Origin: Octopus vulgaris | Taxonomy: Eukaryota | Assembly: GCA_951406725.2 (NCBI GenBank) | Contig: OX597831.1 | Location: 64,232,001-64,296,000, forward strand | Reading direction: 5' to 3' | Length of the DNA: 64,000 nucleotides | Shown: in pieces, positions 2,730 to 48,835 of the stretch | Position numbering within the stretch: position 1 is the stretch's first letter | Layout: every line of letters starts with the position of its first letter | Notes under the pieces: model-generated | What the model was told of the DNA's origin: nothing | Databases searched by the model: none | What the model saw: only the letters and a program-made list of their open reading frames with translations | Position numbers and translations under genes: made by a program

Positions 2730-2929
2730 GGCGATCCTTCGGTATAGGTACCTTACGTACAGGAAGTGGCTTTGTTTACATTTCTGAAAATAACAGAAAC
2801 CCTTTTCTCCCACCCCTAACCCTAACACAAACCCTAACCATAACCATACCCACCCCCCCATATATATAATAAAAAAACACTTTCTTGAAATGTGTCCGGG
2901 ACTTCTGGTACCTATACCGAAGTTACGCC
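2730..2929. mobile_element. 200 bp MITE with GG-ended TIRs, perfect 9 bp TSD and CCCTAA repeats
   Basis: TIR core CTTCGGTATAGGTACC / GGTACCTATACCGAAG; ggtacaaag on both sides. Confidence 0.88.
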
Positions 2930-3532
2930 GGTACAAAGATTCGTGTTGTTGACGAACCTTTGGAATGGGAGATATTGCAGCAGTCTACACTCATAAGAAC
3001 ACTTTCGTATCCTTCATTCATATTATGCATACCTGCGCGTGCATCAGTGTTGTGTGTGTGTGCGTGAGTGCGCGGTTGCGTGAGTATATGTGTTAGCGGG
3101 AATTACTGAGATATAACGAAAATATTTCTATAACCTATTCGAGGGTAGGTAACTCTAAAATATATGTTTAAAGGGGAATAACTTTGTGTAGTTGACATAT
3201 GTCTATATATTATATGACTATTTATTATCCAGTGTGTTCATAGATTATTTTTGCAAACTTGTACACTTCCTTGTATTGTATCGTCTGGAAGTGTTTCGCT
3301 GTTTTCAATAAAACTTCCTTTGTTTGCCAATAAACATTGCGGAGTTATCCGTATTTTTCATTCTTTTCTGAATTTTTCAAAGTGTAAAGGCAACTTTATT
3401 GAATACCCATTATAGCGATCCACTGGCGCAAGATATGTGCGTGTGTGCGTGTGTGTGCATTTATGAGCATATATCTGTGCGATTTTTTTTCCTCCGTCTT
3501 CCCTTCTTTAGATCTTTCCTTTTCCTATGTTT

Positions 3533-3562
3533 CTGACGAAGAGCTCCGCTCGAAACGTTAAA
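3533..3562 (+). ncRNA. Minimal type I hammerhead ribozyme motif in a Penelope-like terminal repeat
   Basis: CTGACGA-A-GAGC-tcc-GCTC-GAAA-CGT-T. Canonical CUGANGA and GAAA core, 4-bp stem II, palindromic ACGT stem III, short ttt/aaa stem I. Matches the minimal hammerheads known from Penelope-like elements. Confidence 0.6.
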
Positions 3563-4201
3563 TACATCTGTCTGTTTTGTACACCACCTGTCTTCGTCTT
3601 TTGTTTTTTTCGTAAACTCTCCCTATACATATATTTACATATACAACAGGCTTTCATACACCTTTCATCCACCGATTCCACTCACAAAGTATCAGCTGGC
3701 CTGGAGCTACAGTAAATGACATCAACCCAAAGCGTTATGCAATGGGACTGAACTCAAAACCATGTGGTTATGGAGCAAACTGCTTAACCAGAGAACTTTA
3801 CCTGTCCAGTAATTAGACACGCACACAAACACGCAAATGTATCAATTTTATTAAGCTAATCAATGAGTACAAGCTATAAGATATGACAATAAATCAAAGA
3901 CCAACTATTTTATAGATCACATTTCTGAAAATCCATAAATATCCATAGAGTTTATATAATTATTCACAAGGTAGATGGATTGATTAGGTCATTTCATTAC
4001 ATAAACTTAGATTTGATCTCAAGAGTGTTGCTATATCATGATATAGTACAAGCAACTATTGATTTCTGAAGTTTCATTATACTGATACAATCAATTGTCC
4101 ACTCTTCAGGGTTTTGTATAAAATCCATTTTCTCAACAATTGTAAAACTATATAACAACACAACTTTCTTACTCCTTTCTCTTTGTGAATAATTATATAT
4201 A
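3561..4201 (+). repeat. 641 bp direct duplication, identical to 7461-8101
   Basis: Line-by-line identity at an offset of exactly 3900 bp; followed by 4200-4291, which copies 5358-5449. Confidence 0.95.
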
Positions 4202-4373
4202 GGATGCACCGGATATCTATATGGTGTTAGCCATACGACAAGTGGGGTGATTATAAATAGGAAAAAAGCAACAAGAATGGATTAAAATCTCCTGGGCGTC
4301 CAATAACATTATACTTGTTCCACATCCTCGCGTTGTTGTGTTTTCTCTTTGCGTTTTCATGTTTGGATTAACT

Positions 4374-4451
<78 letters not shown>

Positions 4452-4454
4452 GTC

Positions 4455-4660
4455 GCCATGATAGATCGTTAGCCACTACACACATTTTTTTCTCTCCTTG
4501 TATCTCTCCGTGTTTTTTCTGTGTCACTTTCTGTAGAAGAGCATAGGCTCGAAACGTAAAAGACTTTTTCTATTCCTGAGCGTTATACTAATACATCTGT
4601 TTGTTTTGTACACCACCTGTCTTCGTATTTTGTTTTTTTTCGTAAGCTCTCCCTATATAT
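4455..4660 (+). mobile_element. Penelope-like element terminal repeat next to (TA)n; related copies at ~4900-5075, 7200-7530, 42670-42830; sister family at 3480-3560 plus 4291-4372
   Basis: Shared architecture: pyrimidine tract, CTGTNGA-AGAGC..GCTC-GAAAC hammerhead-like motif, cctgagcgt, and a T-rich tail ending in (TA)n. Confidence 0.6.
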
Positions 4661-5089
4661 ATATATATATATATAGGGAGAGAGAGGGGGAGAGAGAGAG
4701 AGAGAGAAGGTGTATGGTGGTATATAACCCTTGTTTTTGCTACATGAAGCACTTCTACAAATATCAGCTGTCTGGAAATTGACGAGTGGAAAGCTTTTTC
4801 ATGCTACGACTCAACTTGTCTGAAAATGCACAAAACATCCATATAGTATGTATCATAACAAATACTGAAGAATAGTTTTAGCAAATTCTTAAAATATTCA
4901 TATTTTTCTCTCTCCGTATTCTTTTTTTCATTCTCACTCCAGTTTTTCCACTTCACCCTTTCTGTGAAAGAGCGTAGGCTCAAAAACTCAAAGACTTTTC
5001 CATTCTTCCCGAGCATCACACTAATACACCTGCTTGTGGTTCCCTCACCTGTCTTTGTGTTTTGTTTGAACTGTATGTGTGTATTTGTA

Positions 5090-5242
<153 letters not shown>

Positions 5243-5420
5243 ATATGTATATGTATATGTATATGTATATATGTGTATATGTATATATATATATATACAG
5301 TTAAGTAATTGAGATTCTAGTGAATTCTAAAGAATTCACATGAATATGGTCCTTAACTAGGATGCACCGGATATCTATATGGTGTTAGCCATACGACAAG
5401 TGGGGGTGATTATAAATAGG

Positions 5421-5574
5421 AAAAAGCAACAAGAATGGATTAAAATCTCGGTACGATCGTTTCGTACGAGGACATCTTTAATAAGCTACAAAAAATGCAT
5501 TTTTTGTAGCTTATTAAAGATGTCCTCGTACGAAACGATCGTACCGAGATTTTAATCCATTCTTGTTGCTTTTT
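5421..5574. repeat. Perfect 154 bp palindrome with no spacer
   Basis: Arms are exact reverse complements about the centre 5497/5498 (aaaaaatg|catttttt); extends to 5416-5580 with one homopolymer indel. Confidence 0.95.
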
Positions 5575-5882
5575 TCCTATATATATATACATATATATAT
5601 ATATACATATATATATATACATAACTTATCTCTATATCCTACATGTACTTTATATATATATATGTATCGTGGCCGATGCCAGACCCCTCTGGCACCTGTG
5701 CAGGTGGCACGTAAAAAACACCCACTACACTCGCGGAGTGGTTGGTGTTAGGAAAGGCATCCAGCTGTAGAAACACTGCCAGACTAGACTGGAGCCTGGG
5801 GCAGTCCCGAGCTCCCCAGACCCCGGTCGAAACCGTCCAACCCGTGCTAGCGCGGAAAACGGATGTTAAACGATGATGATGA

Positions 5883-6064: not shown

Positions 6065-9000
6065 GCATGTATATATATAAGGTCCTTGTAGAGTATAAAG
6101 ATAGGGTATTTCCAAAGAAGCACTCAGCTCAGTACTTGGCCAATCACCAATCAACACTGTCAGGTTCCATACTAATACTAAAATTCTTCAAGTGTAGACA
6201 ATCCTGGTTTCACAATGGTGAAACTATTGTGTGGATTTTTGTTTCCTCTTGATATAAGCAAAAGACAAAATCTGGAAGATGCACCTTTGACACAAGTCTG
6301 ATAAAGTGCCACTCAAAAAAGTGTGTGTGTGTGTGTGTGTGTGTGTTATCAAACATCAAACAATGTAAATTCTTGATTTCTTAAAATTATCTCCACCTCG
6401 AGAGGAAGTATCATAATTACCAAATGGTAATTAAGATCATCTCCAAATTTTTTCCAAAGTTACATGCCATAACGGTAAAGGATGGGCTTATAGTGAGAAG
6501 GTAAGAGAACAGCTGTGAACACATGTTTCTGGGTCAATAGACATCATCAGAACAGCAATTGTCTGACCTTATCTTCAGTAGCAAAAGGATAGACTGTTTT
6601 TGTTAGAGGTATCTTTCAGATTTGAAATTTTCCAGTTCCCCACATTGCTTCACAATCAATGTTTTCCCCAGTGGTGGCAGTTTCTGGATGCCCAGACATT
6701 GGGTCATCTTTAAGACTCTTCCTTCCCAATGCTTTTCCTATTGGCAACCCCTACCTGCTTCTTAGGTCTTTGGAAAAGTACAAGGACCAGTTGTAAGGTC
6801 AACTTATATCACTGTGTCACTAAGGCAGTAACAAGTAAAACCACAGGAGGCACACACACACACACACTTAAATGGATCTGACCATAACTATTCAGTTGTC
6901 TGAAAAACATTGAATTAGTTCTGTAAGTAGCAAAGTGCTTCCCAGATATGTACATTCAATGTAATACTCTGATGGAATCAGTGTGACATTGTGACAAAGG
7001 CTGGACCTTTGAATTACAGACAATCCATTCGAGACTCCAATCCAATTTCACTTACAAGGTATGAATTGACCAGAGGTAATGAAAAATTATACTTAACCAA
7101 GATACTGTGCAACAGAATCGAAACCAGGACCCAATAATTGCATTGCAAATGCCTTAAATACTCAGCCACATTACTCCTATGTACACACATGTATACATAC
7201 ACCTACACATACATACACGCACACGTCTAGACCACCAGCCCTCTTTCACACGCACATACATACTCTCTTATACACACATGTACCTTCGTGTTGGGGGTCA
7301 TCTTTACTTTATCTCCCCTACTTTCCTTCTCATGTGTGACCCTTCTGTCCGAGTTAGATGCCATGGTAGATTGTTAGCCACTACACACATTTTTTTTCTC
7401 TCCTTGTTTTTTTCTGTGTTCCTTTCTGTAGAAGAGTGTAGGCTCGAAACGTAAAAGACTAATACATCTGTCTGTTTTGTACACCACCTGTCTTCGTCTT
7501 TTGTTTTTTTCGTAAACTCTCCCTATACATATATTTACATATACAACAGGCTTTCATACACCTTTCATCCACCGATTCCACTCACAAAGTATCAGCTGGC
7601 CTGGAGCTACAGTAAATGACATCAACCCAAAGCGTTATGCAATGGGACTGAACTCAAAACCATGTGGTTATGGAGCAAACTGCTTAACCAGAGAACTTTA
7701 CCTGTCCAGTAATTAGACACGCACACAAACACGCAAATGTATCAATTTTATTAAGCTAATCAATGAGTACAAGCTATAAGATATGACAATAAATCAAAGA
7801 CCAACTATTTTATAGATCACATTTCTGAAAATCCATAAATATCCATAGAGTTTATATAATTATTCACAAGGTAGATGGATTGATTAGGTCATTTCATTAC
7901 ATAAACTTAGATTTGATCTCAAGAGTGTTGCTATATCATGATATAGTACAAGCAACTATTGATTTCTGAAGTTTCATTATACTGATACAATCAATTGTCC
8001 ACTCTTCAGGGTTTTGTATAAAATCCATTTTCTCAACAATTGTAAAACTATATAACAACACAACTTTCTTACTCCTTTCTCTTTGTGAATAATTATATAT
8101 ATATATATAATAAAGTCAGTAAGCTGCTGGATCATTAACATGCTGGACAAAATGCTTAGCAGCATTTTTTCTGGCTTTACATTCTGAGTTCAAATGTCAC
8201 CAAGGTTGATTTTGCATCTTAAAATAAGAACCAGATAAGGTGAGCTGGCAGCAACATTAGCACACCGGGCGAAATCCTTAGCGGTATTTCATCTGCCGTT
8301 ATGTTCTCAGTTCAAATTCCCCGAGGTCGACTTTGCCTTTCATCCTTTCGGGGTCGATAAATTAAGTACCAGTTACACACTGGGGTCGATGTAATCGACT
8401 GAATCCGTTTGTCTGTCCTTGTTTGTCCCCTCTATGTTTAGCCCCTTGTGGGTAATAAAGAAATAAGACGAGCACTGGTAACGACCTAATCACCTAGCTC
8501 TTCCCTATAAAATTTCAGACCTTGTGTCAATATCAGAAAGAATATGTGTTTTTATGCTTGTTTTAACTTTAAAAACCTGTATTTCTAGTAATGGCATTTC
8601 TATTAATTTAAAAATGTCAGTTGTTTGAAACAATGATGCAAAGTTCATTTTCTGTGTGAAGCATCTGTTTTTAAATGTAATATTTTTGATGTTGAGAAGA
8701 TAACAATGATATTTTTGGAGTCTGGTACAGCCCCTCATCTTACAAGCCCTGGTCGAACTGTCCACCCATGCCAACATGGACAGCAGATGTTAAGAGATGA
8801 TGATAGTGATGATGTTGTTATTTTTCCTGTAAAATCATGTATTCTTCTGGATCAGACCAATCTCCTGTAAAAGGGTCTGCCTAGGATGATTTCAATATAA
8901 TTTGGAATAGTTGGAGGTCTGAGGTCAGGTGGTGAAGAATTTTTCTTTGTAACATGAATGTTGTGAGTAGTTTTATACATATACACATACACACACATTT

Positions 9001-10198: not shown

Positions 10199-10975
10199 TT
10201 ATTTACAATACCGATCGGATTTCATTTTTTCGCGTCGGTCCAACAGATTTCCATGCAAAGTTCCATCTTTTTTAGCTTTCTTTAGCACTTTAACATCATC
10301 TTTACTCACTCGTAGTCTTCGGTCTTGGAAACTTTGAAACTTCTTCACGTAGTTGATTTCGGCTTGTCTAACAGAAGCCCGTTCTTCAACGGGTATATCA
10401 GCTTTGGGGTCTGGTGTATTATCAGTGCAAGATTTCAGGCGGACCATTTCGCTTGGGCCAGCTTTCGATTTAATACAAGTTATGTTACCGTCCTCATCGG
10501 AGGAGAGAAAACAACCATTGGGCCCACAAATTGCAGTTTTCCCTTCTTGAAAAACCGGTTCCCATTGTTCTCGTTCACCAATAGCATCGGACCGACCCAC
10601 CACTTCACCAGACTTTTCCACGCTCAGATATTTCCCGTATCCGGATTTAAGCGCGATTTTCGTCTCATTCACTTTAATAGCCGTAATGATCTCCGTGGGG
10701 TCGGGTGGTTCCTGTTCGTCGTGTTCGGGTCCCAGTTCAAAAAGCCCGTTGTCCAAGCTATTAATGTAATGTGATGGCTTCATTTCGACAGCAATGGGTC
10801 CGGTTAGATCATCGATAGACGATACACTCCACCATCCACTGCGATCGGTATCTACAGGGGTACTTTCTTCGGGACCAGAAATAGCATCATGTTTTCTCTT
10901 TTTATGCTTTTTGTGCTTCTTTTGACCCTTCACTTTTAACCGTCCACCTTTCACAAACGAATATGAATCAGCCAT
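10199..10975 (-). CDS. FRG1: FRG1 (FSHD region gene 1) protein, 258 aa, single-exon CDS
   Basis: Uninterrupted ATG-TAA ORF. It has the N-terminal basic NLS (KGQKKHKKHKKRK), GWW, the fascin-like domain motifs IALKSGYGKYL and SDAIGEREQWEPVFQEGK, EINYVKKFQSFQD, and the C-terminal LLDRREKMKSDRYCK, all characteristic of FRG1. Confidence 0.97.
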   Translation of the reverse strand: MADSYSFVKGGRLKVKGQKKHKKHKKRKHDAISGPEESTPVDTDRSGWWSVSSIDDLTGPIAVEMKPSHYINSLDNGLFELGPEHDEQEPPDPTEIITAIKVNETKIALKSGYGKYLSVEKSGEVVGRSDAIGEREQWEPVFQEGKTAICGPNGCFLSSDEDGNITCIKSKAGPSEMVRLKSCTDNTPDPKADIPVEERASVRQAEINYVKKFQSFQDRRLRVSKDDVKVLKKAKKDGTLHGNLLDRREKMKSDRYCK

Positions 10976-11099
10976 GCTATTATATATCCAAGCTGTTTTT
11001 CAGCTGATACAGAAAATATTATAAATATAAATTGATGATTTGTATTTCTTAGGTGTCAATAAAATTGAATTAATACAAATTTTCAAAAATTAATGCCGA

Positions 11100-48296: not shown

Positions 48297-48726
48297 TTAA
48301 ATATAACAAGGAATTTAGTAAAATGACTTAGTTATCATTAAGCTAGTGTTAGGAACATAAATTGTGACTAAGGCTTGGTGAAGGATTTTAATTCAAAACT
48401 TATGAAAAAAAGACATTTGTACTGAGAGCCAGAGCCGGTTTCAGCCGGGTTGGTAACGAAAGGGTTAATCAGAATCTTTGGGCTAAACAACAAAGATAGC
48501 TATCTACCACTTAGATAAACTGTTATTGCTACTAAGCCTAATATTGTCACTAAGAGGGCCGAAGTATAACTGCAAAGGCATTCGCAAACCAGCAATGGCT
48601 GAAAACATTTCTCAAGACCAGAAAAATAAAGAAGGTATCAAAGAATTAAAATAAACAAACGAAGACAATCATCTAATTGGCAAACGCTGAGAATAGTTGT
48701 ACAATAAAACAAAGAACTTCACTTAC

Positions 48727-48835
48727 ATGTGTGCAGACATTCTGTGATGGTGGTCGCATCAATGAGGTAGCCAGAACACAGTGTGCATGTAATGTGAACA
48801 TTGACTGACTTCAAACGAATTCTCCGCTCCATCAT
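48727..48835 (-). CDS. PCGF3: PCGF3-like Polycomb group RING finger protein, coding exon 1 (MMERRIRLKSVNVHITCTLCSGYLIDATTITECLHT)
   Basis: RING N-half resembling PCGF3 (HITCxLCSGYLIDATTxTECLHT). Acceptor tttcag precedes the exon start at 48861; donor GTAAGT at 48726-48721, phase 1. Confidence 0.93.

Follow-up and report, generated by a model that had tools for sequence, protein, structure and literature searches.

A composite templated insertion beside a predicted hammerhead in a Penelope-like terminal repeat

A Penelope-like terminal repeat in the window (the whole 64,000-nucleotide stretch analysed here) carries, in place of ~19 of its own bases, a ~730-base patch that joins a perfect copy of a segment ~4 kb away to a 92-bp stretch of a young Penelope-like family. 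The patch is probably a recent product of DNA repair, laid down with three template switches by FoSTeS/MMBIR or synthesis-dependent end joining. Predicted hammerhead ribozymes lie close to its joints and most likely matter as shared DNA sequence and structure, not as cutters of RNA. An initial annotation had described a ~730-bp composite insertion in a Penelope-like repeat, and the assembly bears this out: both copied pieces, X and Y, are found, as is the resumed element. Template switching onto nearby DNA, one of the mechanisms that it offered, gains support from the local copies and from microhomology at the joints; the other, ribozyme-anchored transduction, fares poorly, given an acceptor older than the insert, an explanation of joint 1 by homeology between hammerhead cores, and template polarities that let only one piece fit a hammerhead-sense RNA.

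The acceptor is a forward-strand terminal repeat of family A, divided into a left part (3479–3563; 39 other places match ~3479–3562 at 90–100%) and a right part (4290–4366). Piece X (3561–4201, +) equals 7461–8101 (+) over 641 bp with zero differences by exact matching, as had been claimed, and is the sole exact duplicate of at least 100 bp of complex sequence in the window and the 10 kb to its left. It opens with ~70 bp from the 3′ end of a family-B repeat, continues into host DNA that holds an old repeat remnant (about 3624–3786), and closes in a TA run; the earlier statement that the main donor extends into flanking DNA is thus correct. Piece Y (4200–4291, +; 92 bp) resembles 5358–5449 apart from two compensating homopolymer indels, G4/A6 in Y against G5/A5 in that neighbouring copy. 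The proposed copying of 5358–5449 therefore stands as similarity and falls as exact identity; the donor, formerly labelled host DNA, is instead part of a young Penelope-like family, C (99% identical copies, GIY-YIG). The acceptor picks up again at 4290–4292, agreeing with the 4291 first given.

Every joint (3/3) carries microhomology of 2–3 bp: AA or AAT at joint 1, where 3561–3563 is common to acceptor and insert; TA at the X–Y joint (4200–4201, already noticed in the initial annotation); and TC at the return to the acceptor, leaving Y with TA and TC at its two ends. Joint 1 sits 1–4 nt past the predicted family-A cut, in an AT-rich spot (TT/AAAT) at the start of a pyrimidine tract, and the right part resumes at ~+23, with ~19 nt (+4 to +22) missing. 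We take the insert to have replaced ~19 nt because the tract between the two joints is most often 19 nt long in intact relatives. The donor of X is left intact, continuous with a family-B repeat (B2) on its left and with flanking DNA on its right, and lies 3.9 kb from the acceptor.

The acceptor motif follows the description of minimal type I hammerheads in excerpts of PMC4209133, from which our criteria were taken; the two landmarks named earlier, CTGACGA (3533–3539) and GAAACGTT (3552–3559), are in place. The predicted ribozyme (3529–3563, +) consists of a 4-bp helix I, the core at 3533–3539, one unpaired A, a 4-bp helix II with a 3-nt loop and a palindromic helix III, with the cut placed after 3559. 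The motif is conserved across 77 A-type motifs and displays CUGANGA, GAAA, UH, G10.1–C11.1, an extra base after position 9, palindromic 15.2–16.2 and a helix I of 4–5 bp. We regard it as a fair minimal type I hammerhead, for which cleavage is predicted. An Rfam scan gave no hammerhead among 150 listed of 159 matches, which were only microsatellite-driven miRNA and snoRNA entries below the gathering score. The motifs folded as monomers are not significantly stable, as expected for hammerheads of the dimer type. No RNA data set was listed as containing 2900–4366.

Families A and B are placed with Penelope-like elements by motif, fixed 3′ end, TA targets and inverted forms; no recognisable ORF was found beside five fetched family-A/B copies. 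Relatives drawn from the 2.8-Gb animal assembly that we searched show what the undisturbed acceptor looks like: all 28 fetched on the left part run on into the pyrimidine tract, and all 19 picked on the right part run through the motif region. The repeat at 4531–4660 had been read as the acceptor's intact sister; it belongs to family B, like the main donor, and the true intact relatives lie elsewhere.

Family B is represented by B1 (4448–4660, +) and B2 (7355–7530, +), neighbours of a decayed third B-type terminal repeat with a hammerhead at 4900–5070. B1, with the variant core CUGUAGA, is not a donor and agrees with the acceptor left end in 28/34 columns. Its core type is general: 45/53 B-type motifs read CUGUNGA rather than CUGANGA, so the donor family departs from the canonical core, with U at core position 6 family-wide (4448–4660, 7355–7530 and loci L052–L080) and the helices kept, helix I through a compensatory pair relative to family A. 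B2 has a 24-bp deletion after its motif, and X starts at the far end of that deletion, at +8 of the motif. The initial annotation had placed the main donor ~8 nt past a hammerhead-like motif; the position is right, and the short distance is due to the deletion, the corresponding point in B1 sitting 24 nt further from the cut. We considered an origin of this deletion in the same event as the insert and rejected it, since another locus (L054) shares the deletion junction and many family-B copies, in a query-biased set, carry varied deletions just 3′ of the motif.

Three of the six breakpoints fall within 8 nt of a predicted cut, a proportion above chance were they independent. Homeology links them. 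Across both strands of the window, the top two matches to the acceptor's last 40 nt are B1 (score 42) and B2 (38), with the next at 30. The acceptor left end and B2 (7423–7456) are identical in 27/34 columns, 11 of them consecutive, and X starts 6 nt off this register. An end broken in the hammerhead core would pair with the look-alike core of B2, which accounts for the coincidence with a motif on the donor side; homeology of the two cores would thus explain joint 1 on both of its sides.

Divergence separates acceptor and insert in age. The right part differs at 3/83 positions or more from each of the 40 scored relatives (the closest of these genomic matches is 96% identical), and both parts together differ at 4/158 positions from the nearest of 46 intact copies, against 0/641 differences in X (Fisher P 0.0015). 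On this measure the acceptor is older than the insert, and hence the insert is not part of the acceptor's own insertion. Polarity adds a second constraint: synthesis would have to run leftward if X came from family-B read-through RNA but rightward if Y came from family-C RNA, which leaves room for no more than one piece derived from a hammerhead-sense RNA.

The candidate donor of Y lies in a two-armed, young family-C insertion in TA repeats (5298–5579), which contains a perfect 154-bp palindrome (5421–5574) and has a ~115-bp tail between its two fixed ends. Family C is, judged by sequence, a young Penelope-like element with a GIY-YIG ORF upstream of a hammerhead-bearing terminal repeat and two fixed ends, found in TA runs. 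Its copies are 99% identical, 525 arms share one exact 24-mer, and two long copies encode GIY-YIG (PF01541; E 1e-4 and 3e-4, one above and one just below the curated cut-off); no RT domain was seen in the truncated copies fetched. Relative to Y the hammerhead is on the minus strand; its cut is predicted between 5452 and 5451, at a distance of 2 nt from the end of Y, a point absent from the initial annotation. The neighbouring copy retains only the 3′ half of the family hammerhead, folding back before the 5′ half. Y ends at the foot of a DNA hairpin predicted within the perfect palindrome (−7.5 kcal/mol, z −2.4). The homopolymer state G4/A6 occurs in 51/56 family-C arms, Y counted; G5/A5 occurs in the neighbour only.

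Elsewhere in the genome, four family-C arms (L115, L116, L117 and L118, ~position 1526 in each) end exactly at the predicted cut, three in short fold-back insertions and one by a jump to a more internal part of the element. A fold-back list for family C and its relatives (50 listed of 73 loci) was set aside, its turns lying mostly at local palindromes by eye and the counts not being normalised. Next to a family-C insertion at one further locus (L090, 2225–2829), TA runs hold a different short element whose two ends are exact direct repeats of 115 bp.

We propose that the insert arose in a single event that began with a break or stalled fork inside the older terminal repeat. In left-to-right order, the broken left end, in the hammerhead core, would have paired with the B2 core 3.9 kb off, synthesis starting at AA(T), 6 nt off register. 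A polymerase would then have copied 641 nt and dropped off within the TA run; re-priming on TA in the family-C insertion, 2.7 kb back, would have let it copy 92 nt, to the hairpin foot in the 154-bp palindrome. Rejoining to the right end on TC would have cost the 19-nt pyrimidine tract.

Repair from DNA is favoured by the short microhomologies, the small deletion, the lack of target duplication and poly(A), and the intact donor; by the first and second rank of B1 and B2 among window matches to the acceptor end; and by an acceptor older than the exact copy X. For Y, the predicted DNA hairpin at whose foot it ends argues in the same direction, as do the absence, from the neighbouring C copy, of the hammerhead's 5′ half and the lack of an excess of family-C arm ends at the cut (P 0.25, below). 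A local source is further favoured by proximity, the chance of a family-C locus within 10 kb being only 0.1–0.7%. Other observations count against repair. Y lacks the neighbour's two private indels, which calls for later mutation or assembly error in the neighbour. The end of Y is 2 nt from the C cut and the acceptor break 1–4 nt from its own, coincidences to which we assign an estimated ~4–5% chance each. Joints 1 and 3 are unbridged among the contigs listed. Finally, the site is not neutral in family A, since 5′ truncations crowd just 3′ of the cut.

This crowding emerged from a genome-wide survey of family-A breakpoints. A pattern anchored in the 5′ part, which catches about one quarter of breaks, missed the present locus and so has low power, gave 14 matches leaving the consensus, eight with internal deletions and six losing the right part (breaks at +4, +4, +9, −10, −11 and −14); in no case is there an insert after which the element picks up again within 1.5 kb. 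Anchoring in the 3′ part gave 371 matches, 100 of them listed. Setting aside 42 (one tandem duplicate and 41 copies with internal indels, five of these borderline) left 58: 19 have their end at +7, the edge of the anchor, another 23 between +6 and +1, and 16 between −1 and −24. Leaving out +7, 23 ends in 6 nt against 16 in 24 nt gives P 1e-7 for the 100 listed of 371 matches, among which no insert of the present kind occurs. TA-flanked truncations, counted by eye in the first 100 of 2543 rows and overlapping partly with the 3′-anchored set, comprise 27 loci: 13 end at +33 to +8, five at +7 to +1, five at −1 to −27 and four further on (P 0.019). As a control for truncation rates further 3′ than +33, incidental copies are too few (18 rows, some redundant).

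Family-A truncation points are therefore several times as dense immediately 3′ of the cut as they are across the core, with a plateau-like profile (L171–L200, L275–L344 and the TA-flanked rows). The predicted pile-up of breakpoints at the cut is recovered to this extent, in ordinary element insertions and not in events like the present one; a second such insert is absent from the 28, 19, 14 and 100 family-A loci examined, sets that partly overlap and give low power. The step could reflect cut RNA templates, stalling before structure or the pyrimidine tract itself, and is possibly either an in vivo footprint of cleavage or fall-off at the tract. In family C, 33 matches scored by eye split into 12, counting the present locus, with ends in the 8 positions leading to the cut, and 21 whose ends fall in the 21 positions past it; with the present locus left out, 11/32 ends in 8/29 positions amount to no excess (P 0.25).

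The best-surviving alternative divides the insert between two kinds of synthesis. X would have been copied from DNA, and its TA 3′ end then extended by Penelope RT on family-C RNA or annealed to fresh cDNA, with run-off close to the 5′ end left by the ribozyme; the neighbouring C insertion would probably date from that very episode. We give this a minor chance, and a slightly smaller one to the specific statement that Penelope RT patched a DNA break with ribozyme-cut RNA, running off its hammerhead-defined 5′ end, after a repair polymerase had copied 641 nt of local DNA and passed on its TA end. Its appeal lies in Y, whose G4/A6 state is that of the family and unlike the neighbour's, whose rightward synthesis needs a minus-polarity template, the sense of family-C RNA (by the ORF and hammerhead orientation in L164), and whose start, at a TA run, shares its opening five bases with the short fixed end of the family. 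Y also stops 2 nt short of the predicted C cut, at which four genomic arms end exactly, and excerpts of PMC11167929 describe a purified PLE protein from anole that cleaves AT-rich DNA and can prime in the absence of homology. Yet of 58 arm contexts no other begins at the start of Y after a TA run, arm ends do not pile up at the cut, and the DNA hairpin at the same place equally explains a stop on DNA. The same excerpts report that hammerhead cleavage is dispensable in vitro, that uncut RNA is the main template there and that no RNA-seq reads end at the cut. A neighbour this close is also improbable by chance, unless both arose together. If the RT-patch reading were true together with the family-A truncation step, they would form a genomic footprint of Penelope hammerheads cutting in the germ line and setting the ends of inserted DNA.

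Quite improbable is the model first put forward, in which ribozyme-cut read-through RNA of B2 was reverse transcribed into a sister element. X does begin 7 nt after the predicted B cut and run into flanking DNA, the B motif does keep helix I through its compensatory pair, and family-A truncations are enriched just 3′ of the cut. But the core of B departs from CUGANGA, the +8 distance exists only through a separate 24-bp deletion, and homeology explains the donor start. Leftward synthesis would first have copied Y from plus-strand DNA, against the sense of C RNA, so that a DNA-to-RNA switch is needed; cutting RNA, moreover, would by itself set no break in an older DNA acceptor. The survey found no second case (14 5′-anchored copies; 100 listed of 371 3′-anchored).

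Less probable again are two separate events: a longer templated duplication, then an independent integration of a short family-C segment in the duplicate's TA run, with loss of everything beyond. Family C does target TA runs, and the family state of Y would be explained without a local template; against this, Y starts at neither fixed end, the right joint of the first event has left no remnant, and one spot would have to have been hit twice very recently, beside another rare C copy.

Sequencing contigs bear on whether the insert is real. A 490-nt contig (3740–4229) present in runs X2 and X3, which come from one sample, crosses the X–Y joint with no differences, passing it by 28 letters, just below our 31-letter rule. 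Support for the middle joint thus comes from one sample, possibly the very one that was assembled. An assembly artefact in the form of a chimeric consensus is the least probable reading: X and its donor are 100% identical, joints 1 and 3, which link high-copy repeats, are unbridged among the contigs listed, and a run X1 contig goes from X into the donor flank rather than into Y (contigs showing presence only), but the X2 and X3 contigs cross the middle joint, the joints carry microhomology and both acceptor halves fit one element. Contig depth for X over the left flank (103.5/75 in X1, 36.4/33.6 in X4 and 43.9/50.5 in X5) was unusable, depth not being copy number. Joints that skip the insert, considered as an empty allele, derive from intact family-A copies elsewhere. 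At position 2953, a 19-letter insertion is common to runs X4 and X5, which carry two organism labels, and occurs in neither the assembly nor run X1.

Returning to DNA repair, the insert looks real and recent, and most plausibly belongs to the known class of templated insertions, made with three switches. The closest case that we found, in excerpts of PMC6902434, is an 861-bp junction insertion at the PLP1 locus, drawn from two flanking regions by FoSTeS x3 with one AluY/AluY switch; microhomeology is given there for ~32% of joints, and excerpts of PMC5120786 describe complex insertions of the same geometry. With these FoSTeS/MMBIR insertions the present one shares a similar size, two probably nearby templates, three switches, microhomology and a switch between diverged repeats. 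It differs from the PLP1 type, as excerpted, in its invertebrate host, in having the hammerhead core of two Penelope-like families as the shared sequence, in a switch 6 nt off register and in the lack of a large copy-number change. Local n-jumps and bridges of templated insertions (PMC7025897, in part) are likewise strings of local copies that return to the host and leave a gap; those events are somatic, from cancer, whereas this insert is sub-kilobase.

Retrotransposon-related insertions offer a second comparison. Class 1 TSIPs and LINE-type events are marked by a target duplication of at least 5 bp, a poly(A) tail and a poly(A) signal; here there is a deletion instead of a duplication, and no poly(A) tail, though the left joint, TT/AAAT, is near the LINE-1 consensus of PMC5110952. 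Class 2 TSIPs, in excerpts of PMC5110952, resemble the insert in their intact donor, microdeletion, microhomology and lack of target duplication and poly(A). They differ in their distant templates, argued to be RNA-derived, whereas our main template is 3.9 kb away and two pieces are joined. LINE-1 events are described in part of 10.1101/2024.12.14.628481 as remodelling local DNA into inversions and inverted duplications, in contrast to the direct copies seen here.

Against known PLEs (excerpts of PMC4209133 and PMC11167929), A and B agree in their minimal motif and C in its hammerhead, GIY-YIG, two fixed ends and TA targets, with a family-C tail of ~115 bp compared with 30–40 bp for other PLEs. 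Unlike a standard PLE insertion in these sources, the composite starts at no fixed end and carries host DNA. Neither ribozyme-anchored transduction nor truncation at the cut is reported in the titles and abstract openings that our literature search listed. As a repair scar the insert is ordinary; it suggests that template switches can land on conserved ribozyme cores shared by otherwise unlike repeat families, a role comparable to that of Alu pairs in humans. The wider question is what Penelope hammerheads do in vivo, and both the family-A truncation step and the family-state sequence of Y bear on whether cut RNA serves as template.

Two other frames in the window stand apart from the repeats. 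The frame at 48719–48830 (−), which has no Pfam match as a whole, contains what is presumably the first part of a RING-finger-like sequence, similar to Polycomb group RING proteins. At 10199–10999 (−), 2 kb from the main donor and pointing towards it, an uninterrupted 266-codon frame encodes a full FRG1 domain (PF06229, E 5e-73) and represents either an intronless gene or a young retrocopy.
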